DNA of 64,000 nt from Raillietiella orientalis. Its lineage: Eukaryota. The DNA is taken from positions 124,001 through 188,000 of the forward strand of contig JAYWIR010000022.1 in assembly GCA_036172245.1 (NCBI GenBank). The letters run 5' to 3'. Below, piece by piece: positions 5,001 through 40,340 of the stretch. Both the position numbers and the translations under genes were made by a program. The notes under the pieces were generated by a model, which was not told where the DNA came from, searched no databases, and was given only the letters and a program-made list of their open reading frames with translations. The first letter of the stretch is position 1. Each line of letters opens with the position of its first letter.

Positions 5001-8000
5001 ATGCCCGCTGGAAGAGACGCAGTGGCTTTGCGGGGGAGATAGGGGAGGGGGAGAGGACATGGGTGTCTCCGATCCACTTCCCTCTCCCCTGAAGAGCCGG
5101 AGCTATTTCCCCGCTAGTCAGGAGAGATCGGTGGGGCGGTCCCGCTCTTTCTCGGAGGAGGGAGCCTAGGCCCTCCTCCGAGCCCTGGAGTCCCGCACGA
5201 CGGCGGCCTTTCCCGGTCCACGGTGCCGAGTTCCATCGGGACCTCCGTTGGCACAAACTCAAGGAGGGATGAGGGAGAAACTCTTGCTCGTGGGACCCAG
5301 ATCTCGAGGGTCGTCCCTCCCCCGGGCAATCGAGGCCGCTTGGCGGCGCCGAAGCAGAAGGAACGGATGCCTCCCGCTCCCCGACGCGGGATGAACCCTC
5401 TCCCCTCTGCCCGCAGGGGCAAGGTCCGCCGCCGCAGGAGCTGTCAACGCGCGCGTTTTCGCTAACTCAGGTCCCACCGAGTCACGCGACCCCGAAGGAG
5501 GCGACCGTGGCACTCAGTTCCCAGGATGCAGCAGGGCTCTTGCCGGAGGGGGCGGCAACCGCCTGACTTGAGTCTTCCCTCCGCCCCTCGCACGAGCCCT
5601 GGGAAGGACGAGCTCTCACGCCTCGACCCAGACCGCTCCGGAAAGTTCACTCCCCGAAAGCGGTCGCTCAGCAGCTTCCGGGGTTGCTGCTGAATGGCGC
5701 GGCAGACGACGGCGCTCACCCAGGGGTGACGGCCCGTCGGGCGCGGGCCCGGGAGCTGAGGCTCCTTCGTCCGGGGCTCTTGGGCGACGGCAGGATGGCG
5801 CAGGCCGGACGATGCACGGCACGTGACTTGCGCGCCACCGAGGCGTGCATCTCGCGCGTACAGGGAGGGAGCGACCCTGCGCGTGTGGTCCGTTTCCCGA
5901 GGGAGGCCACAGAAACGGGGGTCGTTCCGTTCCCCCTCCCTTCCCCGTCTGTCCCGGCGCGCAAACGGGAAGAGCGGGAAGCCTGTCTGCTGACTGCGGG
6001 CGTGGCAGCAAGTGAGGGCGCAGGCCGGGCCGTGACAGAGGCGCCAACGGCCCTCCCCCTCCAACCGTCGCGATGTGCATGGAGCAGGAAAGTCGGCGGA
6101 GCCCGGAGGAGAGGCCGGAAGGCTTCCGCGGCTCGTCGCGGATCTTCGAGAGCTACCTCGAGACGACCCCCTGCTCCCTCGGGGACGGCGGTCAGCGCTG
6201 ACGGAGGTCGGGTCGAGGAAGAATGCATGCGCCCCTGCGCCCTCCGAGGGAAAGAATGATCACTTCCCCCGTCGGAGTGACACGCCCTGCTCACCCGGCA
6301 GAGGGGCGGACCGTGGCCCCGAAGCAGGTCGCGCACGTCCGGGGCTCGAAGAGCACGCGCTTTCGCAGTTGTAAGGGTCGCCTCCGAGCGTCCACCAAGG
6401 TCGTCCATCCGGGGTCGCGAGGGGGTCAGCTCCCGGGGGTGGCGTGCAGACGAGCCGTCCACCCACGGCGGGAAGAGACGGCTGGTCGCCATGGAAGGGC
6501 GCGCGAGAGCACGTCTCTTCCTCGCTCCTCCTCTGCTTCCGCGCGCGGGCGCGTCCATCCTCCTTAGGACGGGCAGTGGTCGAGCACCCATCGTTGCCTC
6601 GCGGCTACCGGCGCGCTTTCCGGGATTCCGGGAGGGAGCTGCTGCGAGGTCGGGATATGGCGCCCGGTGCGACCGACGGATGGTGTGCCGGGAGGCCGTA
6701 GCGTGTGCAGGGGTCAAACCGGGAAAGCGCGACCCATAGAAATGCCGTACCTCTTCCCGTTGCGCCTCCTCCTCTTCGTGGCGTACACGGTTCCTAATGC
6801 ACTCATCCTCTTCTGCGTCCTTCGGGACTCTTTGTCGCGCCGCAATCACTTGGAGCCGGAGGCAGCCGCGAGGGATCTCTGTGTTCTCCGGAATCCTCGC
6901 GCGTTCTCGGGAGCGGAGGCTGAGCCTCGGAGGTTCATCTCGTGTCCCCCCGAGGAGGGGGCAAGGGAGGGGCGGAGGAGGGGAGAGGAAATCGTGCGGA
7001 CCACCCGCTCTCTCGCTCGCCTTCTGGGAAGGCAGGGAGGGAGTCGTGCAGGAGCAGCGGCTCGGGCAGGGTCTGTCTAGCGCGAGGAAACGGGCGCTCT
7101 CGTCGACAGGGAGGTGCCACTGGCAGCGCCGCGCAGGGCAGTCGCGTGCTCCGCCGCTGCAGGTTGCGCTTCGACTGGGCTGCTTCCTGCGCGCGAGGGG
7201 GAGTGACCGCGCGCGGCGCGACGTCTGCCTCCCGGTAGGTACCAGCAGGCAGACGTGCGGAAGCCTGCCATCAGGCCCCTCCCTCTGCGCCGCTGAGCGC
7301 CCAATGGGGTGCCGAGCCGCTGCATACGAGCGCGGTCGGTACTGCGCCGCTGCTTTTATAAGCGGAGGGAGGGCACAGAAATCAATGCCTCAGTCGGACG
7401 CAGCGCGTCCGGGAGGGGTGGCGCCGCCGTTCCGCGAGCTGGGCGGGGAAGGGGGCAGGGTCGGAGGGAGGGGAGCTGGGCGCTCCCATCCTCCTCCCGC
7501 CGCCGAAGGAGGGAAAGGGGTCCCTCCCGCAGCGGGAGGGGCGCGCAGGTGCATTCCCTCTCCGGCAGAGAACCCGGGAAGGCCTCTCCCGGGCCGCAGG
7601 TGTGCGGGGCAACAACTGCGGCTTTCGTGCCGGGAAGCCATAACACGACGACGCGGGAGCGGTATCCAGGAGACCCGCAGATGCGGGCGCCTTCCGAGAC
7701 GCTCACGTAAGGCGCGAGCCTTCCTGCGCGGGCCCACTGGCGCTGGTTCCCCCGGGCGAGATCTTCGAGTCCATGGGACCTTAACCAACGCCCGTGTATC
7801 CCCTCACCCCAAGGGGTGGGAGGAGGGGGCGATGCCCACGACTGGTCTGTTCCCCCCCCCCTCCCTCCGACTTGTCCGTCCCGGGACGCTTTGTTCCTGC
7901 CGGAGAGGGTCCGGTGGGTCGGCAGGGTCCGGAAAACTGAAGGTTCCCTCGTCTCCCCCTCCTTCTCCCCCCTCCTCCCTTCTCGTGGCCGTCAAAACAA

Positions 8001-11000
8001 AAAGGGGGGTGGGGGAGAGGCGAACACACAAACACGCTCTCGCGCACGCACACACGCACGCAAGGGAACGGGCGGCAAACACGATTTGGATGACGTCACC
8101 GTCGCCCTGGCAGGTGCGCGCGTGCGCGCGCGCGTGCCTCTCCCCCCCCCCATCTTTGCCGCGGCCGGGCGGATGGGCGTAGGGCTATCTCCCTCTTCCC
8201 CTTCTCGACACAGGATGCTGGGGATCGGGAACGCGGGTGCATCGGCAGCCGCCACAGGCTCACCTACAAAAGCTCCCACAGTCCCCACTCGTGATGGAGC
8301 CCATCCTTGCGCCCCCCATCCGTCGCCGGGTCTGGATGCCTCGAGCCGTGCCAAGTGGGTTGCGACACCCGGTTGCTGACCAGAGACACCCTCGGACAGA
8401 CCCCATGGGATGCAGAGGAAGTGGGGGGACAGGCCCTGCCCAGGAGACGAGCCAAGAGGCGTGCGACCTCGTCACCTAGGACGGAAGAACGCCTCCCGAG
8501 ACACCAGCGGCGCTTCGACTTTGGGTTGGGGGAAAGGGGAGGCAGGCGAGGTCAATGGCGTCTCCCCGTGTTTCATCCTCCCGCATGCATGCAGGACAGA
8601 CAGCTCCGCGGAGCGTGCCGGAGGGGGAGAAGGGCCGGGGAGGGGAGTCTGGAGCGAGTGCTTGGGGTGGAGGTGCTATGGCGACTCCAGGGGATGCGAC
8701 GGAACGGGAGGAAGCTCGTGGGGGGTAAAGCAAGTAGCCTCCTACTTGCTTTACCCCCGGGATAGAGCAAGGGGCCTTGAGGGCGGCGACCTCCCGTCCA
8801 CGCGCAAGCCAGCCAGAATTGCCGGGAGCACCGTCAAACGCGGCCCTTGGGGCGAGAGCGGAGAAGGCAAAAGACTGCGGTGGCCCTGCAGGCGGACGCC
8901 ACTCGCCCCCTGCCCCACCCCACGTCCCCCTCAGGCAGCGCGCACGGACACGTCCGCGGCTGAGAGCAGGGGGCAGAGGAGGGTGAGGCGGGTGACTGCG
9001 CCCCGAAGACACGGCGAGCGACCTGAGGGTCGGAACTCGCGCGCTTCCGCAGCTACTTCCGCGGGGTCAGCGTGGCTGCGGTCCTCTTTTCCTGGGAGTG
9101 CCGAGGCTGACAACGAGCGGGGGGAAGAGGATATCGTGCTCCTGCTCCGAAGAGGCGGGAGCAGTCCCCGGACAGCAGCCTTCCTGGTTCCTTAGGGACG
9201 GACGAGTCGCCTCGAAAATGCCACCGGGCACAAGGTCCCGAAGGGACTCCTTCCCGCCGTTCCCTCCCGGGGGAGCGCGCCAGTTCGATGGCTTCTGTTC
9301 GCTTCCTCTCGAAAGGATGGCGACCTTCGTGGCCGAGGGAGCCCGGACCCGCGCCTCCCTCACCATCGTCCGCCCTTGGAGCTCCCCACGTCTTTGGTTC
9401 ACATCGAGAAAGGACGGATGCAGCGACAGATGCTGAGGTGAAAGAGGAGGATCCAAGGAAAAATACGAGGGTGCCGATGCTATTAATAATTCGTGCATCT
9501 GCGTGCGGAATCAATTGGATCCGGATGCTGCGCTGGGGGCGCCGCCGCGGAGCGCCTGCCTTCCTGCTACGGAGCAGGTCTCCTCCCCCCGGGGAAGAGG
9601 AGCCGGGGGAGCTCGGGAGCGTCTCCCACCGGAAGAGGTCATCCCCGGGGTGAAGGCCGAATATCCCTTCCGCCCGGCGAAGCTCGGGTCTCGCAGGCAA
9701 CGCGCGGAGCCACCCTCCTGCAGCCGGGAGGGCCGCCTCCCGAGAGCAGTCCGCTGCGCACGCGGGTGGGAGCGTCTCCGGAGGGAAAGTCCCCTGCTCG
9801 CGCGGTTCAGGAAGCCTCCCGATTGCTGAGCTGCGTGGACGGAAGCAACAGCAGCCGACTGCTGCTTCCGCCTTGGAAATTCTTGATATTTCCATTAAGA
9901 GCTTACAAGGCGGACTGCCTCCTCCGAGAGGAATCCTGGCGGCCGATCCACGGGCTCCGAGCCCTCCCCTGTGTGCGGGGCGGTGAGATGTGCGGGTCGT
10001 GTCCCCCTCCTTCCCACAAAGTCGTGTCCCTCGTGGCACGGGGGCAGGGGACCACCACGAATCTCCTATCGGCTTAGACTCGCGCCCTCCCCTTCTCCCC
10101 GTGTCACGGAAAAGTCACACTTCCTTCCTCCTCGTGGGTCGCTGCGAGGACGCTCCCACGTTTCCTCCCTTAGCCACGCGCCCAGGTGCGCCCGGGCGAC
10201 CGACTCGCCCCCGATGGATCCTCCGCATGGACGATGATGCGATGAAGGGACCTCGTGAAAGAAAGCTTGCCGGCCAGGGTTAGGGTCGCACAGAGTGCCG
10301 CTAGGGTACCAGGCTGAAACCTTAACCTCCCTTCCCGCACGGAAACCCCAAAGGCTTTCCAGTGCATAGCCCAGCATCCAAAGTCCTCGTAGGTCGACGA
10401 ACTGGCCTGATTTAAGAGCGCAGAGGCACCTGGCTGCACCCGGCCCGGTGACTCTTTCGTTTTTTTTATTTTATTTCCTCTCTTTCACCGTGTGAAAACA
10501 AAAGAGGGGCACAGGGAGGAAGGGGGAAAGACACCTCCTACCTTGACTGCCGGTCGCAGCGGATCCGCAGGATGCCTGCGAGATGGGAAGCCGGTTGGAC
10601 CACCCGTGGGAGCGGCCGAGGTCCCGCACGTGGTCGCATCCACGAAGCTCATCTCGGAGGAAAAAAAAAAAGAAAAAAGTCGACAGATTCGTTCATCCGA
10701 TTCATGCGAACGATCCTCGAGCAAAACGCCTCTGCCACCATCCTCATCCCTATCTGCCAGGATCGAAGCCGCTGCCTATCGTATGTCCCTACGCAAAGAT
10801 ACTGCTTGCATTAAAGACCTATCAAATGTGGTATTGGTCATAGCAGCGATGTCTGGAATGTATCCTTCCGCTGCACGTCAGATGGAAATAAGAAGAAAAA
10901 TCAACACATTCGGGATTTTACGATCACTCGAAAAAGATCGGTCGATTCATAACAACTCGAAAATTTTCTAGGCTGCATGAGTTATATCGGCATTTCACTT

Positions 11001-18773: not shown

Positions 18774-20555
18774 GGCTACTTTGGAAATGCTATGAAACAA
18801 CTGCTCCAAACCTCTGCCCCCCAACAGTGCGGTGGTCAGCGAACCACGGAACCAAACTTCCGGATCGAAGTCTTCCGTCGTGGAGGCACCCAAGAGTTCT
18901 TTTCCTCAGGGCAACGTGTCCCTTCCGTGCACACCTCCGGGCAGGAGATAGCGGGCAAACGAAGAGGGCTGCTTCCGTCAGGTGGCCGCCCATTCCATCA
19001 CGGGGAGTTCGCTCTGTAGAAATTTCGAGATCCCAGTCGGCGAGACCACCAGAAAATCCCTCGGGGGTACCGTACAAAGGATTTGCTTTGTACAGGAGGC
19101 CAAGACCCGACCGCGTACAGCTCGGCTACGCATCAAAGTGTTGAGGCACTCAGATCATTTACTTTTGCTTGTTTTTCCGGTTGTCTTTTTTCGAGAACTG
19201 CATTACCCTGCCAGGAATGGTCAACTAGTATCTCTCCTTTAACAAAAGATCGAAGGATTTAACCATCAGAAGAAGCAAAATGAGCATTTTTTAATTTTTA
19301 GGATCTTCTTTAGATTTTTTAAAATTTCGGCGATCGAAGTTTTTCTCTTCAGTCTTGTCAGGGAAGCCACTGTGGCACCTAAAATGGAAGCACCTTCATT
19401 AACCAAGAAGTGTGCTCAGTTTCCTATTTTGCCCGTCGGCTTAAGCAGCAAACTAACCAAATGCCCTGTTCTATGTGAGAGGCTTTTCAGTTCCGGGGTA
19501 GAGTGAATGGCTTCTCTTGCTACCAGAACTCACATCAAACCTACAGCTTCCGCCGCCTTCTCTTACAATTCCAGCAACACGCCTGCTGTGCATGCGGCAG
19601 CAGCATGAAGTTCACGCTACCGTGAGCTTGTAAAAGTGATTCGGTAAAAAGTGACCCATTGCCTCGTGCTTTGAGATCCACTTATTTCTCCTGATGCGTT
19701 TTTCTTCTCTCTGCAAAAATTCTCACTTCCCACTGTCAAATGCTTTGCACCTTCCTGCTGAAGAAGTGCAAATTCGGTACCACTACGCGCCCGACGTGAG
19801 CAGCGGGATGCAATGATGGCACGCGAGAAAAAAATTTGCAGAGAATCCGTCAGACGCCTAGAATCAGTACAGGTGCCAAAGAAGAGCTCTGGGACGCGCG
19901 ATGTTGACCTGACTTGGCTGGGACGCTGTCAGGAATTAGGAATCGAAAAGTCTGGCCCTCGGCGAAGAATCGCGGCGAGTCAGGAGCATCCGGGTTGATT
20001 TCCTAGGCAAGAAGTCTATCTTTCATCTCGAGTGACGGAAGACGAGACGCTCGCGGTGGACTTCGCCACGACATGACCGACCAGTCGGGGTCAGCTGGGA
20101 GTGGCGAACGGCCAAACTGGGGCATCGGAGCGAAGCACAGATTTCGCCGAGCCGCAGGTGGCAGCGAACCGTATGCAGTTCTTGACTCCCCGGAGCAGAC
20201 ACGAGAGGAGCTGCACGATCGTGCCTCGGCATGCAGTGCCCCTGACTCTGGGAGTTCCATCCCTCCCTTTCTAGAGGAGCCTAGAGTGCCCTGACTACCT
20301 GGCTTAGGGAAGGGGGACTACCCTCCCTCTCCCCGGGATACTCACGGCCCAGCAATCGGGCAGCTCAAGACGTAAGAGGGCCTCCGTCGTGAATTCAGCA
20401 AAATCCCTAGCCCAAACCTAAGTGGAACCCACTTCCTGGAAGGGACGATGCTCCCGGAGGGAGGAATAATGCCTCTTGGAGGACCGCCCCCGAGCACCCC
20501 ACAGGAGTATCTCAATTCCGTAGCTTTTATGACCGAAACTTTCACAACAAACGCG

Positions 20556-23015
20556 TCAGCTGCTGGACGGAGTCCCCGGCAGCGGGCCGATGATCTCGAC
20601 GTCTCCGGGAGATGGCACATCCTTCCGGTTGTGGATCCTGCCCTTGCGGTACCTCTTCCGGCGGCGGACGAGGACAGAGAAGGCGCCCAAGCACATCATC
20701 ACGAAGCATGCGCTCAGGACGACCAGCACCGCACTCGTCTTCCCGCTCGCGAGGGCGTCCCGGAATTCTGGGGAGACAGGACGCGGGATTGGAATCTCCC
20801 GAGCGTTTTTCCCGCCCGCACCTCCTCCCGCCTTTCCCCTCGCGGTCCCCGTGGTCACCTCGCAAAAAGTGTCCGCGCGTTCTGTTCCCCTCGGTCAAGA
20901 GAGCCTCTTTTCCTTTGTCGGGTTGCCCGTGCCAGGAAGTCCTTGTGCTGCGGAGATTCTCGTCCGGAAGGGGGGTTCGTTCCGGAAGCGAGGGCTTCGT
21001 CACCCTCTGGGGAGGCGAGGTCACGAGCTCTGCGCCACCAGGACCGGGAGAGGTCGCGATGCTGTCGATTGCAAAAGCAGCCGCCGTCTCGTTCTTCGGC
21101 TCCCTCGCGGGATTCGACCCCTGTTCCACGGATTGACTCTCGCCCGACCTTTGGACCGTCCAGCTTCCGTTTGGTTCTGCGGATGGTCCACCCTGGTCGT
21201 CCTTCAGAGTCGAGTTTCGTCCACCCTGGTCGTCCTTCAGCGTCGAGTTTCGTCCACCCTGGTCGTCCTTCATTGTCGGCTTTGATTCACCCTGGCTTGC
21301 GGTCAGCATCGAGTTCGGTTCGTCCTGGTCTTCCGTCGGTGTCGAGATGGTCGCCGGCAGGTTTTCGTGCAGTGTCGTGGCGGATTGGTCATGTCCTGTC
21401 TTCTGGGTCGGGGTAGGTCTTCCCTGACTTTCGTCCGGTGTCGAGGCTGGTTTCCCGCTGCCCCTCGTCGTCGAGGCTGGTCCACCTTGATCTCGGCTCC
21501 CTTCCGAAGAGGGGGCGCCTCCATTCAAACTGACCTGCCAAAGGTCCTCTTGGAGGTTTCCGTTCGAGTCTAGGAGGACCGGGCTGGTGGGAGTGCGGTG
21601 CCCTTGCCCCTGTCGCTGCGGTGCATCACCGAGGCTGCCGTTCCTACAGGCGTCTGGGCAGTTGCGTACGACGGAACTTCCCTTGCTCGGGGCACTCACG
21701 TGAGGCCGGAGAAACCCTTATGCTTCTCCTCGCTGGGGTCGGCGCCCGACTGGCCACGCTTGGTCTTGTTTTTTACCACTCCGGCGTGGCTCGCGGACGC
21801 CGTCGCAGCTCCCGGAGTGCCTCCGCTGGCCTTCGTTGAGGTGATGGTCTTCAGCTGCCCCTGGTCAGGGGAAACCACGTCGCCGCTGAGGGCAAGAATG
21901 GAACGCATCCTGGCAGGTTCCACGCTCAAGGTGGTGTCGGGGGCTCCCGAAGGGTCCGACCTCGTCCATTTCTGGGTTTGGGACAGCTGTGCGTACCGCG
22001 CGAGTTCCATGACGACCAGGCAGAACGTGCGCCAGATCAAGGAGACGTAGGGCCGGGAGAGGTCGTGTGGGGTCGGATCCGTGTGCTGTCCCCCTGGGAC
22101 GTCTCCCTTGGAGGCCATCGCGGCAGCTGCGGCGGTCGGCGGTCGGAGGTGCTGCCGCGCCGATCCGCCGGCAAACGACGACGCTCTCCCCAGCTCGTTC
22201 GAGAGTTTCTGGCAATTCCTCAGGAAGCTCCCGAACATCTCGTGGAGGTCGGGGTCTAGGAGTCTTCTGCTCCAGAAGGCGTGCCGCAAGTGCGCGATCT
22301 CCTCGGAGACCTTGACGCAGTACCAGTGGACGTCGTTCCGGAGCAGCAGCAGGTGATTCCCTGCTTCCTGGACCAAGGTGTCCTGGAAACCGGCGCAGGG
22401 GACCCCTTCCGCCCCCTCGAGGCAAAAAGAGCTGTCCAGAGTGCATGCAAGGGTCTCCAGACACGGGAAGTGCTTCCGGATGGCGAGGAGGACGTCCTCC
22501 GTGACCTCCGCCGATAACTTCAGTGGGTCCTTTCTGGCGGAGCTCTGGAGCGCGTCCTGCCGAACCTCTTTCAGGCAAAGCGAGCAGTCCGGCCACTCCC
22601 TTAGGAAGAACGCCTTCATGCTGGGCCGTTGGACCTTTTCCAGGGTTTTGGAGAGCAAGTTCATGTAGCGGCAGTCCCAGGAGGAAGGACACAACGTGCT
22701 CTGCAGCTTCAGGACGAGCGTCGCCCATGTGGAGAATTCGTCAAGCGCCTGCTCCAGAATCTGAGCGCGCATGAGCAGCTCTCCGACCGTGCAGTCTGCA
22801 AGGGGGAGAGCCGAGAGATCACTCTGGTTTCCACCCACCGCGCGAGCTATGAGTCCACGGCGGCTCCTTGCCGCTCCCATCCTCCGCCTTCTTCCTCCGG
22901 ATCTATTCCCTTCCCTCCCGTGAGGCAACCTCCTACCTTGGAGCGAGCAGGAACTCGCCGCCTCGCAGGCCGCCAGGGCGAGCACGACGGACGCGAGCAG
23001 CCGGCGCATCCTCAT
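20556..23015 (-). CDS. Orphan type I transmembrane protein, 723 aa (signal peptide, Cys-rich helical ectodomain, mucin-like stalk, TM, short tail); exons 22937-23015, 21700-22795, 20859-21643, 20556-20767
   Basis: Three GT-AG introns (GTAGGA..ctctcccccttgcag 141 nt; GTGAGT..cctgtag 56 nt; GTGACC..ctgtctccccag 91 nt) join three separate ORFs into one 2172-nt frame. N-terminus MRMRRLLASVVLALAACEAASS; TM SAVLVVLSACFVMMCLGAFSVLV followed by RRRKRYRK. Confidence 0.8.
21186..21345 (-). repeat. 33-bp coding tandem repeat (about 3 good plus 2 degenerate units) encoding KDDQGGRNSTL
   Basis: Plus-strand unit gtccaccctggtcgtccttcagagtcgagtttc starts at 21186, 21219 and 21252. Confidence 0.9.
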
Positions 23016-23520
23016 CGCGCTCCCGTTCCTTAGGGATTGCACGCGCGGGTCTGGAGAACCCGGGACGCGTCCCCGGAAGCGGCGTGCGCGAGGGCTTTGC
23101 GAGCCCCTGAGGGCGATCCTTGCGCGCAAGGCGGCGCCGACGGCGGGGGCTAACGTGAGGTCTGAGTCTGTCCCCCGAGGGCAGGAAGAGGCGCTCCGTC
23201 CCTCCCTCACTGGATGAGGTGGCGCCGCTCGCAAGGGGATACCTCGTGGCGTTTCCGTTCCCCCCCCCCCCTTTTCCCGCGGCACCCGTCTATTTCTAGG
23301 AGCGCCCCCTCGCCTCGCTTCCGCTGTTGCCTTCCCCTCCGCTGCGGGCGGGCGCTCCAGACGAGCCGTCGAGAGGAGGCGGTCAAGGCCTTGAGGTGAC
23401 GGAACTCTCTGCTGGTGCGTGGGCAGGTGGAGACGGAGGACGACCGGCGCTGCTGGCGTGGAGGCAGCGTGGTTCGGTGAGGAGGCGCCCGCTCCAGGGT
23501 CTCCGTTGGCTCCGAGAGCT

Positions 23521-24028
23521 GCCCGCGAGCAAGGAGATCTGCAGGGCTATCTCCGGCGAGGTCGTCAGGTCTCCTTGCCTGCCTGCATCGTCAACACCCC
23601 CTGAGGGAGCCTTCGTCCCTGTGGGGAATGGATTCCCGGGAAACCGCTCCCCTGCACTCCGGCGTCGGTTCGTCAACGAGCCAGACGCTCCCCGGTTCTT
23701 GACCCTTCCATGCGGGTCCAAACTGCCATGGCACCGCTGGGTCAGGGACCTTACGCAGACGTTGGCGCCAGGCGACTGGTCTCCTGGGATTTTTCCGTGG
23801 GAGGCTCTGGGGGCCGACGAGTGGCACACGCGGCGCTGAGAGAAGCCTCCATGGCGCTGCCTGGGAGCAAAGGAGAGCAGGCGCTCGCACGTCTCCACCT
23901 GCCTTTCGCACCTGAAAAGGAGAAGAAAAGGGCAAGGGTTCCCTCTGGGGGTGGTGATGATGCAGGCAGGCAAGGAAAACTGACGACCTCTCTAGGGACA
24001 ACCCCTCAGGATCTCTTCGCTCGCGGAC
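23521..24028. mobile_element. Foldback/MITE-like long inverted repeat (arms ~23521-23620 and ~23929-24028)
   Basis: 23558-23608 matches the reverse complement of 23940-23990 at 46/51 nt, with weaker similarity ~37 nt further outward; spacer ~308 nt. The inverted repeat is directly visible; its mobile nature is inferred. Confidence 0.55.
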
Positions 24029-26512
24029 TCCGAGAGCGGCTGCTTCCACAGTGATGGCGGTGGTGCTAGTGCTCTCCGCTAGGGTGGGCACGACACGGGC
24101 AGGCGCGGAGCAAAGTCATAGCTCGAACAGCTCCAGGAGTGAATCTGGGTGCGCGCTGCCGGAGGCCCGAGGACAAGCAGACACCCCCGGAAAGAGGAAA
24201 AGACCATCCCCGAGACCCCGGCTTGCTGTGGCTCCCTATGCAGGGAGAGAGCATACCCCCGAGAACGTGAAATTTTCTTGGAGGACAAAGCGACTGGAAC
24301 CACCCTGTACCATTGCCCAGAGGGCAACTTGCGGGGATCTCCGCCTACTACTGTCCTCGTACTGGCGGGTCGCAAGATATGCCCGGAGGCTCCGTGGGCT
24401 CCCCAGTGGCCCTTCACCATCCCAGACCCGGACCCCGGAGCGGACTGCAGAGCGAGAGACTCGGGAGAGACGAGACCGGGAGGCGGTCAGTGGAGCGGTC
24501 GCTTCCTGTACGGACGGCCCCGCGTTGCGTTGTCTCCGCCACGGAGCGCGGGGCCGCTGTGCCTTTCGACTCGACACCACCCTCTCTTCCAGCCCCTTCC
24601 AGGTCAGAGGTCTGCGGCGCCCGTGGAGATCGCCAACCCATCTTTCGAACGGAGGGAGCGGCGGTGCTGCATGTTCTTTCCGCCCGCCCTTCTGTGGACA
24701 GCGGCCCAAAGGAAAGCGGGCACCAGGAGAATAGCGGGCTCGGAAGCGAATCTCCCGAAGGTGCGCGCAGATCTTGCGGATCCGACGGGTCCTTCGATCG
24801 GCAGCTCTTCTCCCGAGCGAAGGTGACCTGCTCTGCGTCGAGACGACCTACAGAGGGAGAAGGTCGAGCTGTCTCCGTTTGAACTGAGGAGGACAGGTGC
24901 GTTCGAGAACCGCCTGCCCATTTGGTTCCCATTGCTGAAACGGAGGACGTTCGGGCTTCGTGCCCAAAGGCAACGCTGGAAAGGATGCCCATCAGTCAGG
25001 TCGATGTCACTGTCGAATCTTGAGGCGCAGACGTTTGAATGGATCACTCGATTATGAATCCCTGCTTGCGAGAATGCTCATTAGTTCGTTTCCTTCTTGA
25101 AGCTCAGCATCCCCTTGCATAGGGAGTTAAGTTTTCACTTCCCCTCCCCCAGAAAAGGCTGACATAAAACCTTCGGAGCACGAAAGACTGCTTCCGCGTA
25201 TTGGAGTCATTTTCCATTTGTCACGTAGAAAACATTCCATAGGGACCTCGTAAGATCTGTCGGAGTGCGATTAACTGATGCAGATCGGGTGGAGAGATTT
25301 TTTGCTTGATCTTTGTGATCGATTCATGAGCTGATGCATACCAAGTAAACAAACAAACGAGAATGTGCATTCTGTTTTACTGAACTGTTCTTTGCAAACA
25401 GCGAAGAAACTGCTTTCAAGGTCACCTTTTACGTTTCTAAATACTAGTTAGATGATTGATGAAATGTTATAAAAGATGACGATACATTTTCTCCCTAATG
25501 TTATAAATTAATCAGCCAGCATAAGCCCCTCCACCAAAAACACATCAAACGCACTAGTCACCCAAGGGAATATTTTTCCAACTGAGATTGCTCAAGGAAA
25601 ATATGTGTGTAAACTCATCGAGCGGAGACAAAAAAAAAACAACAACAACAAAAAAAAAGAGCCTTCGACGGTCGTCCTCCCGTCACATTCTTTCTCTCCA
25701 ACACCAACCATTGGGAGTCGAGGTGCACGTTGATCACAAACACCAGTCGCTGACACCAATCTTTTGAGCCAGAAGACACAGCAAGCGGTGCGAACGACAC
25801 CGATTCGCTATGGCCGACCACATGCCAAGATAATAACGAATAGTTCATGTAACTATGAGCTAATGGATATTGAGCAGAAAAGTGTTAATGGAGATTTGCG
25901 CCGCTGGCTGGCATCTTTTCTTTTTTTTTTTTCGGTATCAACTGGTAAAGATTGGCTTTCTTTTGTATGTCGTGTCAGGAAGTCATGACATTGTATTACA
26001 TCAGCAAAAATTTTTTGGATGATGTCGTAATTAACAGTCTTGGTGGTATTTTAGAGTCTCGTGGTTTGGTTGCTGCAGCTGATGAATGGGCAAACTGTGT
26101 GACTGACGAGTGATTTTCTGGATTTCTTTCCCGACTTGGAACACGATTTTTTCTGTTCGAAAAATCGAGGATGCTGAACTCATGCAATCAAATCGATTTA
26201 TATCTGGGGGATATCAAAAAAAATATAAAAACGAGCCGTTCTCTTTGTTTTGCCTTAGATCACCAGTTTCCTTGTCAACTATGTAGAACTCCCTTATTTA
26301 CACATTTATCACATTGTACTGCGAGCATAGGAGTTTCAGTTATCAACAGAGGTTGTGCCAAGTGGCAGTGCGTCATCACACCCCAGCTGATGATCGCCAT
26401 GTTGAATGCATTACTGGAGATACTTCAGTAGAAATACCCATCTTACACAGCCTTATTGTAACCGAAAAAAAGAGAATAGCTGTACATAAGCTATATTTAT
26501 AAATTCAATAAA

Positions 26513-28016
26513 ATGTCAACTGGTATGAGTCCGGAGTAGTAAGTATTTTAGATGCCAATAGTTTTTAGTATTTGAAAGTTGGGAATTTGCATTGGAAAAT
26601 GTGTTGGTGAAACTGTAACAAAACTTGTATAAATTTGTATTACGGTTAATTGGTTGCCTTGCGTTGTGTTTTATGTATTCTCCATCGGAATGAAATGAAA
26701 TTACGTAGTTGTGTTCTCATCGGAGGTGTTCTGTATTTCCCATCAGAAGTAAATTGCCCACTTTCATACTGTCAGCATTCATACTGACACCTAGTTGCTA
26801 ATAATGATAGCGAAGGTGTTTTGCTTGTTATGTTTAAGACCTAGGAATCCTTAGTTCCAATTGTGTTTCTGTTTAGATAATATTTGAAAATTTAAAAGCA
26901 GATTTGCTTGTATTGTGAAGCAGAAAATTATCTCAAACGTAGTTGAGAATTAGTGGTCATTCTTTAAGAGTTTTTGCCCCCAAAGCCTCATAGATATTCA
27001 TGAGGGCACAATCCTGAGTAATTTCTCTTGTCAACTTCACAGAAACAAGTTTTGCTGTCAAGCAAGCTATGTTTGAAGCTGAAGTTTTCAATAAGTACTT
27101 GTATCCCAATTCTGTAATTTGAATGGTATTGAAAAGTTGTAATTTTGTTGGGTGATTTGAGGGAATTTATCGGTAAATGTATCATATTTGCTAAGATTTG
27201 TTTTTTTGATTTTCTAGTGATTATTTGTTCAAACTGTTACTGATTGGTGACTCAGGTGTAGGAAAATCATGTCTTTTGTTACGTTTTGCGGTGAGTATAA
27301 CAAAATTTGTCTTCCAACTAATGTTGTATTTTAGGATGATACTTACACTGAAAGCTACATTAGCACCATTGGAGTTGATTTTGTAAGTTGTGTTCTCTCT
27401 TTTCAGTATGCATTGTGACAGTGTTTTCCAGAAAATCCGTACAATTGAGTTGGATGGGAAAACTATCAAGCTGCAGATTGTAAGTATCAGTTGGTAATCC
27501 CCTACCTAATATGCAAACTTACAGTGGGACACAGCAGGCCAGGAAAGATTTCGAACCATAACTTCCAGTTACTATCGTGGAGCTCATGGCATTATTGTAG
27601 TTTATGATGTCACTGACCAAGATTCCTTCAATAATGTGCAGCAGTGGTTACAGGAGATTGATAGATATGCTTCAGAAAATGTTAACAAGCTGTTAGTTGG
27701 AAACAAATGTGATCAGGCAGTCAAGAAAGTGGTGGATTATAACACAGCCAAGGTAAGGTTGCATATTTATGTTTTGTTTGTTTGTTTTTGTTTCTGATAC
27801 ATTACTTCATGTTTGCAGGAATATGCGGAAAAGCTGAGTATTCCTTTCTTGGAAACATCGGCCAAAAATGCAACAAATGTTGAGCAAGCCTTTATGACCA
27901 TGGCTTCTGAAATTAAGAACCGCATGGGTCCTCCTACATCTTCTGGACATCAGACAGGAGGAGTGCACATCAATCAAGGTGTCCCAGTTGATCAAAGCAA
28001 GTCAGGATGCTGTTGA
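26513..28016 (+). CDS. Rab1: Ras-related protein Rab1, 206 aa; exons 26513-26538, 27218-27290, 27335-27382, 27432-27479, 27525-27752, 27819-28016
   Basis: [68 protein letters not shown]-terminal GCC. GT-AG introns of 679, 44, 49, 45 and 66 nt; total CDS 621 nt. Confidence 0.97.
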
Positions 28017-29245: not shown

Positions 29246-32200
29246 TTTGTCTCGAGTGCAAAGGATTAGGGCGGAGGGTGCCCAGACGGCAAATCCGCCA
29301 GGTCAGCCACCGCCCAAACGGATCCTGGGGTTTCGAGCACCATCACTTGAGAAGTCGGGTCTCTCCGTCGCCGCCCTTCCCTTCGTACTTTGCGTCTGTT
29401 TTCGTTATCGGTATCGCTTCCGGCAAGAGGAGAGGAATGCCGTGAGCTACTTTAGCTCCACCTCGGTAAGACGAAACTTCACCGAATGGAGGTCGACCGT
29501 CCTCCATTGGAAAACGCCGTCGCAGTAAGCCGAGAGTTATCCCAGGATGTTCTTTCCGAGCGCTGGCCATGTGGTGGTGTCCTCGCATGCAAGCGAAGGA
29601 ACGAACGTTGCACGCAGCAGCACGTCGATCTTTCTCAGACTTTCCTCCTATGCGGCCGTCACAGCACGAGAGTTCGGGCACAGCGGCGATAAGCACATGG
29701 CGGATTTACGCAACGCCCTCGGCACCGAGTCGCGCATTTCTTCTGCCTGGAGCGTTTATGTCGTGGCTCCTGTTGACTCATTTGCTATGCAATGATCGGT
29801 CATCCGGTTGCGGATTAGTCGACCATCTCACTAATCAGCGGCCCTCCCCCCCCCCCGTTCCAAGTGACGCAGTAGGTGTTGCGAGCGTGCCGCGGTGCGT
29901 ACCCCTCCCCGCCCGTTCGCGAGACCCCGGGCGGAGGGGGCACGGACTTGCGCAGCACCACCGTCGCGCATTCGGACGGGAGCGTCGCCCGCCAGTCCGA
30001 CCGGGGCGAAGGTAACGCGCAAAGCTCCCGCTGACGAAAAGCAAAAGGTGGAAGCTGAGCGCCGCACCTGATGCTCGTGCGTTTCATCCCGGGCTTCCCG
30101 CCCCCGTCGGCACGGAACTTGCCGCCTCCGTTTCGCCCCCTCTCCAAGCGTCCAGCACTTGGGCATGCACTGAATCCGAAAAGCCCCACTTTTTCGTGCG
30201 TCTTCGGTTGCCAAGACGTAGCGAGCTTCCGCTTCAAGTCGTGAGAGTACCGTGTACAAACCCGCCCCTGGTGGACAAGCTGAGTTGCCGAGGGTGGATG
30301 CTGGTAGTGACCGTGGGAGGCCCACCGGTGGTTAGTTCGCAGTAGTAGGTGGCTGAATTTCTGTGAGCGAGTGGGAATGCCCCGTTCCTGTCGTGTTTCC
30401 CGGATGTATTCTGGGAAATTTTTTGCAGCGTTCGTTCCCGTGTGTGCCAAGGTGCTTGCACGGATGAACAGGTGAGGCATTCCTATACAGTCGTGGGCGG
30501 ACTGGCGCGCTGCGTTCTCTTTCGACCATCGATTGAGTGTAAGGAGGATGCATTTGGCACAGCCCGCACACGTCAAGATGCCCGTGCCTGCTGTGTTTTC
30601 GGGAACACGGAAAGAGAACGAGGTGCAAGAAGAGTGGCGCTGCCTGCGCGCCGTTTCTTTTGGATGTCTCCGATCTGTTTTGTGTTGTCGGTTTCCCGTG
30701 AACGCTGTGAAATGACAGCGACCGCAGCGAAACGGTTGCCGCCGTCGCGGTCAGTTCATTCGTCGAGGGAGCAGTCGCGAAGGGGTCTCCGTAGTGCGCC
30801 TCCACCCGGTGCCGCGTGGGCTCTTCCGGTTTCCGCTGCCACACTCCACCCAGCAGCAATCGCGATTCCGGGGGGTGGTTTCGGAAGGAGGTATTGGATG
30901 TGGCGAGCAGTGTTGCCGCATGGCGCCGCTCGCGTTTTGTGCCTTTTTGAAAAAAGGGCGTCGCCAGGCACGTCCTCTTGCGCGTTCTTTGCAGGCTGCT
31001 GTTCCCGCAGAGATGCTTGACACGGTCCCTCCGGTACATTCAGTGAAAAAGAAAGTAACAATAGACAGACAGAGGTGGTAGGCTCTGAGGCCTACCCAGC
31101 CCAACCATTCATGGGGGAATGCCGACGAGGTCTGCAACGGGAACGGAGGGGAGGGACTGCAAATCTAGAAACGAAAACAACTGCATCAGCGTGGTGGAGT
31201 GCGCACGCCTTCGTGCAAATCGATGCCCAGCCGTGCGCGTGGGTGTGTGCCGGAGTCACCTCCCTCGTAGGTTGCCTCGAGAGACTTAGCGGCAGGAGGG
31301 TCCCCGGAGCACCCTTTGCCGCCGGGTCCGCCCAGCGTCCGGTGCTGGCGAGGACGCACCCTACAGCGAGTGAGGAAGAGCCGGCACTGCAAGGGGCACT
31401 CTCCCCGGTCCAGGTACGAAGGGAGAATGGAGGGGTGGACTCCGAACCCACCTCAGAGGCTGCAGGCTCCATGTCGCCCTCGTGTGGCCATAGGGCGGGT
31501 GCATGCCACTGCATGTCTCGTCCGCCCTTCATCTTCGAGGTCTCTTCGAGGTCCTGTCCCCTCATGCCGGGAAAGGAAGCCCCCAGGGACCGCGCTCCTG
31601 GGCAGGGAGCGAGCTGACCAGTCCAGTTCCGATCCTTCCTAGCTGGAGTTTTTTCTGGGCCAGTGCGCCGCCTCTCGTCCCGCTTACTGGTCCGGAAGGT
31701 GTGCCCAGCGGCCCTGTCCATGCTGTCCTCAGAGCGAAAGGAAGTACGAAACGCGAACAGCCCTTGGCGGTCTCCTTTCGACGAGGATCCGCCAGGGCTC
31801 ACTGCGAATGGGGCAGCGGCTTCCCGTGCCCCAGGCGCCCTCATTGCTTCGCGCCCATTCCCTACAGCCGCGACCTTCCTTGTCTTAGTTGCTGCAGAAG
31901 CCTCAGCAGCGAACAGCTCGAGATGCCCAAGGGATCCAGCGGATTCTCAGGCCTCGTCCTACAGCATAAGGCATCCTTTCGATTCTCTTAGGCACAGCGC
32001 CTTCCTGGGTTGCAGTGCCACTCGAAGAATCACGTGTTGGAGATGGACTCATGGATGGATCCATTAAGGAGTGACCGCGAGAGAGGAGGAGGGTGATGCA
32101 GACATTTCTTGGAGTCATCGTCAGGGATCAATCGAACACATAGGAAACGGATCACTTGACAGGGAAACCTGCTCGTGTTCGACAGCTGTGAAGCAACTGG

Positions 32201-34278: not shown

Positions 34279-36520
34279 TTAATAAGGTCGAGAGCGCCGC
34301 GTTCCTGCAACAATTCTAGCTGGAGGCGTAATAGCAATGTCCAAGAAATCGCCAACACAGAACCGACACCCAACTAAAGATTTAGCATCATCATTTCCTT
34401 TCTGGCCGGAGCATGTTGTCCCAATATCTCGCATACGGTACCCTGGTCCACGAACATCAGGAAAAACAAGTGCGAAATCAAAATAAGTTCCTTTCCTCCT
34501 GGAATCCGGATTCACTTCTTTGATTAACCCTGTTAGCTCCTTTAATGTGGCATCCATCCTGAAAATCCATCTACTTTGCGTTCTGCTTCACATTCTTTAC
34601 TTACCATGTGTAAATCTGGAGCTCATTTGCAGGCACATTACCACGGGAATACTCACTCAATGTATGATGTCTGGTATTACTGCAGAATACACGCAGCAAA
34701 AGAGGGCATGTCTATAAAATTGCAGTAGAAATCACCAATCACCATCAAACACTTTGCAACACATAGCAGTCAAATGAACTGCACTTTATGAAACAAAACA
34801 AAATGCAAGAAAAACATACATAAGAAACTTTTTGTTTGCATTCACAAATACCAGAGTCAACATAGCATTTACTAGCTGAAACAGATTCAAAACTGAGTCC
34901 AGTTCAAATTCTGGAGTCTTCAACAATTACTAAAATAAAACCTGATTTTGTTCTAATCATGGAAACCCTTGGAGACTCCAGAAGTAGATTTCAAAAACCT
35001 GATGCATAAACAGATATCCAGAAAATTTACTACAATAAAACTTGATTTTGTTCCAAATTTTCAATTATCTTCTGTATATCTATGCATGCATCAGACTTAC
35101 AACGATGGAAAAACAGTGAACAAACATCAAAAATAGTAAAGATTTGGAAAAACAGTAAAGTTATTCTGATATCTGAATCATCATCATTACAAACAGCATT
35201 TATGATATTAAACAATCCCTTATCATGAATTTCACTTTATTAAGAAATCTCACAAGAAGAGAACCATTGCAAAGTCATTATACTGCAGGACACTAATAAT
35301 GAAGATCATTCATCATGGACTTAATAATTGCAATTCATTTATTTACAAGCTTACTTCACTATTTTTCTTGAATCTTGAATGTAAAAGTTAGCACAATGAA
35401 CTTACTAACTGTTTCTTTACTTACAGAGGGCATCAGATCCAAAACCACACCTGTTCCTAAAGCACTACATCAGTTCTGTGAAACAAAATCTTTATCTTAA
35501 AATCAAATAAGTTAACATCTCCATCTTCTGATCATGTTTAGAAAACATTCAAGCCATAGCAAAAAAAATTCAGATGTTGTCTTCAAAACCTTGTATGGAA
35601 AGGGGAAGCTATATTTTCCAATCCTTCAGATCTTCATATGAGTAAAAATATACAGCACCGAAAACCCATAAGGAAAAAAAACAACACTGCATAACGACTG
35701 AATCAACCCAGCACTTTTCTTAGTGCACTTTCAGGATGCATCATCAAATAACTTACTGGAACACCAAGTTCAACTTTTTACAGCAATGCGAATGCATTCT
35801 CTCGAGAAGCTTGTGATGCACAGATTGAGAAGCTCAAACATATGTATGGGCAACAGATGAAATTACGTTTCAAACATAATTTCATTCAAATTGATCAAAA
35901 TTTCTTAGGTACTCCCATCATTTTTCTGGTGTTCGGCAGTAAGGGTATAAAAACTCATATACATTTCACACATTCATTTTACTCGAAAATTTAACTTGAA
36001 GTTCCAGACGCTGCAACTGATTTTAAGCAGTTTTGTAACTTTGTACCAATTAAAAACAACGGTATTACAGAGTACAACAACTTGTAGGAAAAGATCACAA
36101 GTACCATAATACAATGCCAGACCTAAAACAGTGTGCGACAAGTTTCTATACACGGTGACTGGGGCAATAATGATGGGAAAGTCTCTGAAACGTTGGTGTG
36201 GTTAAACTGCATATCAAATTTTGTAAAATGTCCACACCCCAAATTATGAATATCTTGCACCTTATAACTAGGAAACGATGAGGGTGACGAGAGGGAATCA
36301 AGAAATCTGCGTATGCAGCTCCCGTGAATACAAACGAAATCCGATGTTCCTAATACATACGCAGACGTACGCAGATTCACAACAAATGAAGGAACAAAGT
36401 TTACATTTAACATTAACACTTGGTAATTCACACGAACACTATACTTACTTTTTCCCTATCCACAGGCTTTTCAGGTTCCGGTTTTTCCTCCACAATCATA
36501 GACTCCACAACTGCAGCCAT
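34279..36520 (-). CDS. SAP18: Histone deacetylase complex / ASAP complex subunit SAP18, 152 aa; exons 36449-36520, 34605-34711, 34279-34558
   Basis: MAAVVESMIVEEKPEPEKPVDREK|TCPLLLRVFC...ELQIYTW|MDATLKELTGLIKEVNPDSRRKGTYFDF...GDFLDIAITPP...RPY. GT-AG introns of 1737 and 46 nt. Confidence 0.96.
35425..35475 (-). other. Candidate 51-nt poison cassette exon in SAP18 intron 1
   Basis: gattttgtttcacAG|AAC TGA ... gccctct|GTAAGT; in-frame stop at codon 2. Confidence 0.4.
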
Positions 36521-39862: not shown

Positions 39863-40340
39863 ACGTGTGCATCCAGGCGTCTACAAGGAGGAAGCTCGCT
39901 GGTGTGCACAGAACACGTGTATATGTAAACGTTCGCAAGCTGGTGTGCAAGAGATGCCTGTACTCTGATTTGGATGCTCACTGGATATGTACTCATGAGT
40001 ACATGTGTGTGGATGGATGCGCACATGCATGTGGACAAAAAAAGATGTGTACGTTTCCAGTCTAACCATATAAACATACTGGATACATACATGTCTTACA
40101 TCTGGATACAACACATGAAGGTACACACGTGTGCATATATCCCATGTGTGCACATTTGCTTTCACGAAGACATCTCGTTTCTACGCTCACAAGTGTTCAC
40201 ATGACCGCGTACACCCACGCAGGTTTGCAGGTATGCGCGTGCGCTGACACGCATAAGTACATGTGACAGCGCAGATATTTTTTGTAGACATACATTGTAT
40301 ACGCGCATGCGCACGCCGGCACGTGCACAGTGAGCACGCA
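39863..40340. repeat. Low-complexity alternating purine-pyrimidine tract (TGTG/CACA/TACA/CATG)
   Basis: Dense cacgtgtgca, acatgt, gtacac and tgcaca micro-palindromes over ~480 nt. Confidence 0.7.

Follow-up and report, generated by a model that had tools for sequence, protein, structure and literature searches.

Among the described systems closest to the locus presented here, the precursors of CSF-1, KIT ligand (SCF) and FLT3 ligand are built around a domain of ~150 aa, a short-chain four-helix bundle, that binds and activates a class III receptor tyrosine kinase, and CSF-1 is a covalent dimer; to our knowledge, these families occur in vertebrates only. The sialomucins CD43, CD164 and PSGL-1 possess juxtamembrane ERM-binding clusters, and the glypicans (PF01153; Dally and Dlp) combine a helical core of ~14 cysteines with a convertase site and a flexible stalk bearing SG sites near the membrane. 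A preliminary description of the 64,000-nucleotide stretch of DNA analysed here (the window) had proposed that it hides an orphan gene for a type I membrane protein laid out like the cytokine precursors. We consider it reasonably probable (roughly 60%) that the locus is a genuine four-exon arthropod gene whose product, a type I membrane glycoprotein of ~723 aa with a single membrane pass, is restricted to its lineage and resembles the cytokines only by analogy, drawn from layout alone.

Gene model and genomic setting

Joining the four minus-strand exons of Table 1 yields 723 codons and a stop (2172 nt), with GT-AG borders in all three introns and intron phases of 1, 2 and 1; coordinates, junction sequences and protein are as the preliminary description gave them. 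There is no ATG within 400 nt upstream of the start, and beyond the stop a variant CATAAA lies at 24 nt, followed by the next ATTAAA 1260 nt downstream. Intron 1 is itself open in frame and would add 47 residues if retained, its in-frame GC3 of 0.57 being like that of non-coding DNA. The first three bases of intron 2 complete an in-frame TGA, so that an unspliced message would stop at 392 aa, before the transmembrane segment is reached.

Table 1. Features of the gene model (positions in the window; a slash marks the exon/intron junction)
Feature	Position	Strand	Description
Exon 1	22937..23015	-	ATG 23015-23013; MRMRR + LLASVVLALAA + CEA, signal-peptide-like
Exon 1, 3' end		-	phase 1; donor AAG/GTAGGA
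Intron 1	22796..22936	-	141 nt, GT..AG; strong polypyrimidine acceptor ctctcccccttgcag
Exon 2	21700..22795	-	Leu-rich, predicted helical head to ~residue 310 (~21945), then S/A/G/T-rich linker
KTKR, residues 370-373	21756..21767	-	dibasic proprotein-convertase-type motif between head and stalk
Intron 2	21644..21699	-	56 nt; consensus donor C/GTGAGT; weak acceptor gcctgtag
In-frame TGA	21699-21697	-	completed by the first three bases of intron 2
Exon 3	20859..21643	-	261-aa polar, Cys-free, G/S/T/P/D/E/Q-rich stalk; 6 N-x-S/T sequons
Tandem repeat in exon 3	21186-21272	-	33-nt unit = 11 aa, KDDQGGRNSTL; 98% identical
Intron 3	20768..20858	-	91 nt; donor GAG/GTGACC; strong polypyrimidine acceptor cctgtctccccag
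Exon 4	20556..20767	-	transmembrane segment, RRRKRYRK stop-transfer, tail; stop TGA 20558-20556
Predicted transmembrane helix, residues ~665-687	20667-20735	-	followed by RRRKRYRK

The genome is AT-rich and contains islands of 60-70% GC, 3-17 kb in length, that look non-coding; apart from the gene, no stretch of these islands in the window is clearly coding. Conserved genes ~5 kb away have a GC3 of 0.34-0.38, as against 0.81-0.96 in exons 1, 2 and 4, and the extreme GC3 of the gene follows its local 60-70% GC island. A search of the literature on arthropod GC heterogeneity brought up no account of such a phenomenon. The SAP18 (75-86% identical) and Ig-like neighbours of the gene find their best matches in arthropods, by which evidence the host is an arthropod, consistent with the invertebrate origin suggested earlier. 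The neighbourhood also includes a Rab1-like gene. Scanning the window for Rfam families and tRNAs returned nothing, and tblastn revealed no paralogue of the gene model within it, the remaining matches having E values of at least 2.3.

The strength of the gene model lies in its codon signature, which we compared with equal-length segments in all six frames of the remaining GC-rich islands of the window. Exon 1 reaches a GC3 of 0.96 over 26 codons (GC2 0.60), a value found in 0.05% of 4086 background segments. For exon 2 (GC1/2/3 of 0.60/0.49/0.81) none of 282 background segments equals either GC3 or GC3-GC2, and the same holds for exon 4 (GC3 0.88, GC2 0.52) against 1530 segments. Exon 3 is the exception: 33% of the background equals or exceeds its unremarkable GC3 of 0.665, and its periodicity is weak (GC3-GC2 of 0.096, reached by 1.9%). 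Furthermore, the high-GC codon position shifts register at the exon 2/3 and exon 3/4 boundaries as the gene model predicts. Eight open, non-overlapping 180-nt segments with a GC3-GC2 of at least 0.3 were found in the 64 kb, the best four of which all fall inside the gene, three in exon 2 and one in exon 4.

The amino acid composition of the exon products is likewise distinctive. Arginine makes up 0.061 of the exon-3 product and S+T+D+E+Q+N+K 0.51, which lies outside the range of all 88 background ORFs of at least 150 aa (minimum 0.091 for arginine, maximum 0.404 for the polar residues). The tandem repeat of exon 3, whose 33-nt period equals 11 codons, likewise speaks for a coding stalk. The head contains 14.5% leucine against a background mean of 8.2%, and 6.6% arginine against 13.9%.

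The codon periodicity is real support for the gene, whereas the matching intron phases, which the preliminary description had put forward, are correct as numbers but prove little, since the exon-2 frame can equally be connected to the frame of the transmembrane segment by 72 open GT-AG paths with one intron and 12,163 with two. Several frames are open at the locus, overlapping on both strands, because the DNA is 60-65% GC, and strong acceptor-like motifs are not rare (116 per 53,608 nt of background). Both splice sites of exon 3, acceptor 21643 and donor 20859, are weak, the acceptor having no polypyrimidine tract; given these sites and the alternative frame-keeping paths, the predicted stalk length and the exon-3 boundaries may be wrong.

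Predicted protein and similarity searches

The signal-peptide and transmembrane calls were made from Kyte-Doolittle hydropathy alone, in 19-residue windows. Two hydrophobic segments only are found, at residues 5-25 (up to 1.72) and 658-689 (peak 2.55), and the six-frame background contains a single transmembrane-grade segment (at least 2.4) in 53,160 windows. On this hydropathy basis, the signal-peptide-like N-terminus, the single transmembrane segment, the positive-inside flank and the extracellular sequons fit a type I membrane glycoprotein; the order of signal peptide, head, stalk, transmembrane segment and stop-transfer claimed earlier is borne out by the two segments and the basic cluster. 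The motifs SCSLQDC, CPSSWDC, CSLC, CLETLAC, KNKTKR and RRRKRYRK that had been singled out are all present in the translation. Across the whole protein there are seven N-x-S/T sequons, all N-terminal to the transmembrane segment, and eight SG dipeptides, and the cytoplasmic tail is predicted to comprise ~36 aa in all, basic and polar in character.

The head spans ~290 aa. A count of its mature part gives the 13 cysteines reported previously, at residues 23, 28, 62, 68, 97, 100, 138, 144, 151, 160, 186, 221 and 285; all fall in exon 2 except Cys23, which is encoded by exon 1. Further cysteines occur at residue 17 in the signal peptide and, twice, in the transmembrane segment. The hydrophobic moment of the head peaks at 95-100 degrees, with the observed mean reached by 6 of 500 shuffles, which upholds the earlier proposal of amphipathic helices. 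An internal duplication of the head was considered and rejected, as blastp between its halves aligned no more than 8 residues (E 3.5). Between head and stalk, the KTKR motif directly adjoins an N369-K-T sequon. Cleavage at this site, with shedding of the head, we infer solely from this one motif.

Searches for relatives agree with the description of the gene as an orphan, and the head, for which a match to a known family would have counted against the cytokine comparison, has none in Pfam, the PDB or protein databases. Scanned with hmmscan against the 24,736 models of Pfam-A, the three exon products matched no family above threshold, cytokine families included; at E <= 1 there were only DUF4012 (E 0.085, 13.8 bits against a cut-off of 28) and TMEM51 (E 0.095, 12.9 bits against 25.5), both sub-threshold. 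With phmmer there were no matches at E <= 0.001 among 1,835,955,588 representative proteins and none at E <= 10 among PDB sequences, and a word-seeded protein search gave 3564 candidates of 200-637 aa, none of them at E <= 1. Viral contigs yielded no match to the peptide pattern; metagenome contigs yielded 100, none of which was confirmed by tblastn.

In the ESM Atlas, where a cosine of 0.9 was the threshold for a lead and the query with the exon-2 product was limited to unnamed clusters, two candidates were rejected: WASH/dynein-tail clusters (best cosine 0.87, recognition 1174, below the 2300 mark) and an unnamed eukaryotic cluster of 233 aa (cosine 0.89 for residues 1-285 of the exon-2 product). 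AlphaFold2, run without an alignment, gave mean pLDDT values of 38.5 (364 aa) and 45.5 (140 aa), both models being unusable, and the helices over residues 1-120 were nearly the same in the two runs at low confidence. Foldseek of the low-confidence 140-aa model against the PDB found nothing at E <= 0.001; what it listed were generic helical bundles with E values of at least 1.3, which we treat as meaningless, and no cytokine was among the matches listed for this model.

Competing readings of the locus

It is exceedingly unlikely that the locus is no gene at all and that GC-rich DNA produced its ORFs, its hydrophobic stretch and its splice-like sites by chance. The empty homology searches are what such a reading would lead one to expect, as are the thousands of GT-AG paths that keep the frame and the open frames that overlap on the two strands, but the GC3 and GC3-GC2 of exons 2 and 4 are reached by none of the background segments (0/282 and 0/1530), a transmembrane-grade segment is a 1-in-53,160 event there, and the compositions of head and stalk are far outside the background. 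A related proposal accepts the gene and regards it as young, with all or part of it (the stalk, for example) having arisen de novo from long open frames of the GC-rich non-coding island. The disordered, weakly periodic stalk with its 98%-identical tandem repeat would suit this origin, as would the embedding of the gene in 60-70% GC DNA with several frames open by chance and the failure to find a homologue among 1.84 billion representative proteins. The head, however, is far from random GC-rich translation in its leucine, its arginine and its GC2 of 0.49, and has both helical amphipathic periodicity and 13 cysteines; an architecture with a signal peptide, a transmembrane segment and three introns is, moreover, complex for a young gene. 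In addition, even the closest database genomes are far removed, SAP18 being only 75-86% identical, so that orphan status may merely reflect sampling. We judge a de novo origin distinctly unlikely. A third possibility, unlikely in our estimation, concerns the extent of the product: exons 1 and 2 would encode a soluble helical glycoprotein of 392 aa that is only secreted, ending at the TGA directly after exon 2, with the stalk region being 3' UTR or exon 4 being joined in some other way. The weak periodicity and background-level GC3 of exon 3, the acceptor at 21643 and the many other splice paths speak for it. Exon 4, by contrast, ranks among the stretches of the window with the strongest coding signature, and its frame contains no ATG before the transmembrane segment, so that it needs upstream exons; donor 21700 and acceptor 20767 are not directly joinable in frame, and the exon-3 product differs in composition from all 88 background ORFs. 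The secreted 392-aa form and the membrane form may coexist as isoforms.

Two further readings assign the membrane protein to a particular class. The first is a membrane-tethered, sheddable ligand akin to a helical cytokine or growth factor, whose released head would signal through a receptor on another cell. In its favour, the predicted order of signal peptide, helical Cys-containing head, sequon-bearing spacer, transmembrane segment and stop-transfer is that of CSF-1, KIT ligand and FLT3 ligand, and a dibasic KTKR lies between head and stalk; the odd number of cysteines would permit a covalent dimer. We nevertheless find this very unlikely. Neither Pfam at threshold nor PDB sequences at E <= 10 offer a match, Foldseek of the low-confidence model is empty at E <= 0.001, the head is about twice the size generally described for those cytokine domains, and no receptor candidate is known. 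The layout, too, is common to many adhesion molecules and sialomucins; a great many surface proteins with one membrane pass have a basic stop-transfer and a glycosylated spacer, and hence the resemblance does not discriminate. It is scarcely credible that the gene is a captured or endogenous envelope glycoprotein of a virus or retroelement, a class that shares the type I topology, the convertase site and the transmembrane segment. The K-x-K-R site and the disparity in GC3 with the neighbouring conserved genes are compatible with capture, but the GC of the gene simply tracks its island, and KTKR is followed by the polar GQSGADPSEEK and not by a hydrophobic fusion peptide. Self-comparison of the window revealed no direct repeats of LTR type flanking the gene, none of the 315 window ORFs of at least 90 aa contains an RT, integrase or capsid domain, and the viral contig and protein searches were empty.

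Proposed working and relation to known systems

For the preferred reading, a lineage-restricted type I membrane glycoprotein, we can outline how the product may work. The n/h/c-region pattern of its N-terminus suggests that a signal peptide would direct it into the ER, where the ~290-aa Leu-rich head of amphipathic helices would fold and be locked by disulfides. The 13 cysteines would make six pairs and one free thiol, and the free thiol could give a covalent dimer. A disordered acidic linker and stalk of ~340 aa, N-glycosylated at its sequons and probably O-glycosylated as well, would hold the head off the membrane. The single hydrophobic segment and the polybasic juxtamembrane cluster would form the anchor, with an N-out/C-in topology predicted because of the positive-inside rule. 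At the cell surface, the protein would most likely serve in extracellular recognition or in adhesion. The head could also be freed in either of two ways: by a convertase cutting at KTKR373, or by termination at the in-frame TGA within the intron-2 donor, giving a secreted form of 392 aa. It is tempting to go further and to envisage an arthropod-lineage, membrane-tethered helical ligand, released by convertase or by splicing, that is an analogue of CSF-1, KIT ligand and FLT3 ligand with an unrelated new fold and that arose or was remodelled in a kilobase-scale GC-rich 'micro-isochore' driving its codon usage far from that of its neighbours; we hold this fuller scenario to be highly improbable.

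Confirmation of the gene would add a new homologue-less extracellular helical domain to the arthropod surface proteome. It would also mean that gene finders based on homology or on the codon usage of the genome as a whole can overlook genes located in islands of aberrant composition. The GC-island context is perhaps more interesting than the protein, given conserved genes with a GC3 of ~0.35 in an AT-rich genome, and the locus provides a useful case for how the base composition of a region, through biased gene conversion for example, interacts with the origin of genes.

With the precursors of CSF-1, KIT ligand and FLT3 ligand the predicted protein has in common the order of parts, a short tail and possible release from the membrane; it differs in a head of ~290 aa with 13 cysteines that matches no family profile, and in the confinement of that head to one exon, where the cytokine genes use several. 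Trypanosome ISG65 and other type I surface proteins with helical bundles resemble it in having a helical head (predicted here), a single transmembrane segment and a short tail. ISG65 comes from an unrelated organism and has no sequence similarity to the protein, and its appearance among the weak Foldseek matches of the low-confidence model (E 2.8, TM 0.25) is at noise level. The glypicans recall it through their helical Cys-rich core, the basic site after the core and the SG-containing stalk. Unlike them, it has no match to the Glypican HMM in Pfam, its SG dipeptides are sparse and lack the acidic SGxG context, and in place of a GPI signal it has a predicted transmembrane helix and a 36-aa cytoplasmic tail.

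The sialomucins CD43, CD164 and PSGL-1 are similarly type I, with a long S/T/P/G-rich extracellular region (glycosylation being predicted here), a short tandem repeat and a polybasic juxtamembrane cluster, here RRRKRYRKGRIHNRK. The stalk is less dense in S+T+P (~31%) than classical mucin domains, and the Pfam and phmmer searches show no sequence relationship between the protein and the sialomucins. Unlike them, the protein bears a large Cys-containing head, of predicted helical fold, atop its stalk.

Codon composition and the gene model

The gene model consists of four minus-strand exons, read within window positions 20300-23300, which join into a 2172-nt frame of 723 codons and a TGA. Its three introns (141, 56 and 91 nt) are all GT..AG and fall in phases 1, 2 and 1. 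Thus, the four segments of the preliminary description do form one open frame, and every motif quoted there was found in the translation. The matching phases had also been offered as an argument for the gene; they are correct, but have little force as coding evidence because many alternative open paths exist. Indeed, enumeration from the exon-2 frame to that of the transmembrane segment (TM) gave 72 single-intron and 12,163 two-intron GT-AG paths free of stops. Since the region is GC-rich (60-66%), with several frames open on both strands, ORF length is equally weak evidence. In comparable DNA, strong acceptor-like motifs turn up 116 times in 53,608 nt, or about one per 462 nt.

The real evidence for coding is composition, which we compared with a background comprising the window's other GC-rich islands (3300-10000, 23400-24900, 29400-31900 and 40300-56400) in all six frames. 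In addition to the values tabulated, exon 3 has a GC3-GC2 of 0.096, reached by 1.9% of 378 background windows, and in-frame GC3 falls to 0.57 in intron 1 although the frame is open. A 150-nt sliding profile places the GC-rich codon position in a single register across exons 1, 2 and 4; in most windows over exon 3 it comes first, alone or in a tie, in the shifted register that the model predicts. When the whole 64 kb was searched for open stretches of 180 nt whose GC3-GC2 is at least 0.3, eight non-overlapping windows emerged, the best four all inside the gene; outside it lay three in AT-rich DNA and one that is GC-rich. This last (52951-53130), the only other GC-rich open coding-like window of that length, could represent a small exon or have arisen by chance.

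The exon-3 product has 0.061 Arg, 0.51 polar residues (S, T, D, E, Q, N, K) and no Cys, as against 0.091-0.211 Arg and 0.197-0.404 polar residues in 88 background ORFs of at least 150 aa; the other two frames of the same DNA contain 9 and 3 stops, with Arg at 0.22 and 0.16. The TM reaches a Kyte-Doolittle peak of 2.55; among 53,160 six-frame background windows of 19 residues, three segments reach 2.0 and one reaches 2.4. In addition, the 400 nt preceding the start codon contain no ATG. There is thus no reasonable doubt that exons 1, 2 and 4 code for protein. Exon 3 probably does so too in the frame proposed, with boundaries that may differ from those predicted.

Donors 1 to 3 read AAG/GTAGGA, CAC/GTGAGT and GAG/GTGACC. 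The polypyrimidine tracts of acceptors 1 (ctctcccccttgcag) and 3 (cctgtctccccag) are textbook; acceptor 2 (gcctgtag) is weak. Path enumeration showed that splicing the consensus donor at 21700 straight to the strong acceptor at 20767 breaks the frame, so that an intermediate exon in a shifted frame is needed, as originally proposed. We hold the gene to be real with high confidence; that the 723-aa model is exact at every predicted junction is only somewhat favoured.

Features of the window, with base composition by codon position and supporting observations
Feature	Position	Strand	GC1/GC2/GC3	Observation
Exon 1	23015-22937	minus	0.65/0.60/0.96	part of joined open frame; GC3 reached by 0.05% of 4086 background windows
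Exon 2	22795-21700	minus	0.60/0.49/0.81	part of joined open frame; GC3 reached by 0/282 background windows
Exon 3	21643-20859	minus	0.62/0.57/0.665	part of joined open frame; GC3 reached by 33% of 378 background windows
Exon 4	20767-20556	minus	0.58/0.52/0.88	part of joined open frame; GC3 reached by 0/1530 background windows
Rab1-like GTPase, three exons	27210-27383, 27510-27794, 27798-28013	plus		Pfam Ras, E 6.4e-30 (27510-27794)
SAP18 exon (histone deacetylase complex subunit)	34282-34587	minus		Pfam E 2.8e-20
V-set Ig-like ORF, 179 aa	60484-61020	minus		Pfam V-set_CD47, E 5.4e-6, 26.6 bits (cut-off 21)
Open 180-nt window	52951-53130	minus		GC3 0.84, GC3-GC2 0.31
Dispersed repeat pairs	13533-13706/14960-15132, 13353-13485/55265-55399, 45522-45661/46709-46850			130-175 bp, 80-93% identity
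Inverted repeat	23523-23611/23937-24026			90 bp, 81% identity

Architecture of the predicted protein

Residues 1-21 (MRMRR, a hydrophobic core of 11 residues and CEA/A) are predicted from hydropathy and rule of thumb to be a signal peptide of classical pattern. The head that follows (residues ~22-310) departs strongly in composition from GC-rich random translation (Leu 14.5% against 8.2%, Arg 6.6% against 13.9%). Its hydrophobic-moment spectrum peaks at 95-100 degrees, with a mean moment of 0.267 against 0.212 +/- 0.021 in shuffles, 6 of 500 of which attain it. These values point to a head made largely of amphipathic helices, in agreement with the Leu-rich amphipathic head described previously; the 13 Cys reported there were likewise counted in the mature head, with two more in the TM and a Cys-free linker and stalk. 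Duplication within the head was sought and not found. AlphaFold2 run without an alignment gave mean pLDDT values of 38.5 (364 aa) and 45.5 (first 140 aa) and no credible topology; both low-confidence models are mostly helical, with similar positions over residues 1-120, consistent with the hydrophobic-moment result.

An S/A/G/T-rich linker (residues ~311-392) carries N369-K-T and the dibasic convertase-type motif K370-T-K-R373 (KTKR). The stalk (residues 393-653) is encoded in part by a tandem repeat of 33 nt, or 11 codons, with 2.6 copies at 98% identity. The TM (residues ~665-687) precedes RRRKRYRKGRIHNRK and a short Pro/Ser tail, an arrangement that places the head outside the cell by the positive-inside rule.

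Genomic setting

Across the window, AT-rich DNA (36-45% GC) is interrupted by islands of 60-70% GC with sharp boundaries, which lie at about 3-10, 20-25, 29-32 and 40-57 kb. A Pfam scan of all 315 stop-to-stop ORFs of at least 90 aa and 11 shorter ones gave matches in AT-rich DNA only, where the conserved genes sit with a GC3 of about 0.35 (Rab exons 0.38, SAP18 exon 0.34). Outside the gene, the islands yielded no Pfam match and no codon periodicity (600-nt windows, best-frame GC3-GC2 at most 0.15); they are non-repetitive, are not repeats of one another and have CpG observed/expected ratios of 0.9-1.0. The gene's own island has flanks and introns of 0.59-0.70 GC. The gene's extreme GC3 follows that island and on its own need not mean foreign origin. 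This unusual compositional setting slightly raises the otherwise modest interest of the gene.

Of the three dispersed repeat pairs, which may be small mobile elements, two are inverted and one is direct. The 90-bp inverted repeat precedes the start codon by 0.5-1 kb, within flanking DNA that is GC-rich.

The SAP18 exon finds its best named hits in a millipede, spiders and a centipede (75-86% identity), and the Ig-like ORF in uncharacterised proteins of porcelain crab, Lepidoptera (moths) and locust (41-46%). These hits mark the host as an arthropod, bearing out the earlier 'invertebrate'.

Orphan status, function and known families

The gene had been called an orphan, and the searches concur. 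Pfam returned two sub-threshold rows only, and phmmer with the 364-aa exon-2 product found nothing at E <= 0.001 among 1,835,955,588 representative proteins. None of the 3564 candidates (200-637 aa) from a word-seeded search reached E <= 1; PDB sequences gave no match at E <= 10 and viral contigs no pattern match, and of 100 pattern matches in metagenome contigs none was confirmed. ESM Atlas values of 0.87 and 0.89 both fell short of the lead threshold, and recognition was low. Foldseek against the PDB with the low-confidence model had no hit at E <= 0.001; its best row (E 1.3, TM <= 0.38) and all others were generic helical bundles. The collections also lack the window's own protein, and no close relative of the organism is among those sampled, as the best hits of the conserved SAP18 exon share only 75-86% identity with it. 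'Orphan' is therefore to be read as lacking relatives beyond an unsampled clade that may be narrow or wide. Very probably this is a real gene; no relative of it is known.

The gene most likely encodes a lineage-restricted type I cell-surface glycoprotein, an explanation to which we assign a probability of about 0.6. The sequence features and the coding signature are directly observed; the picture built on them is inferred. After ER targeting, a helical, disulfide-stabilised head would be displayed at the surface, held up by a long, disordered and acidic stalk that carries glycans; one TM followed by a polybasic juxtamembrane cluster would serve as the anchor. The head may be released by cleavage at KTKR or by way of the stop in intron 2, and a role in recognition or adhesion can be suggested tentatively.

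Among the alternatives, a secreted-only product draws on the intron-2 donor, where C/GTGAGT creates an in-frame TGA at 21699-21697; an unspliced message would therefore encode a 392-aa protein that lacks both stalk and TM. Given the coding signature of exon 4, we consider it unlikely that this is the only product. A de novo or young gene, less likely again, would suit the empty searches and is compatible with a surface glycoprotein, but the head looks mature. Chance could supply the open frames and phases, and a viral or retroelement envelope the type I layout; codon composition in the one case, and the empty viral search in the other, leave both highly improbable.

It is tempting to compare the predicted protein with the precursors of CSF-1, KIT ligand and FLT3 ligand, and the layout is indeed the same. 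The likeness noted previously is real but not specific: sialomucins fit equally well, as do glypicans except for their anchor, and Pfam places the protein in none of these families by sequence. The cytokine-like ligand is an analogy, for or against which the low-confidence models say nothing, and a sheddable ligand of this kind is an improbable reading. As a lineage-specific single-pass surface glycoprotein, the product would add to a broad and well-known class.
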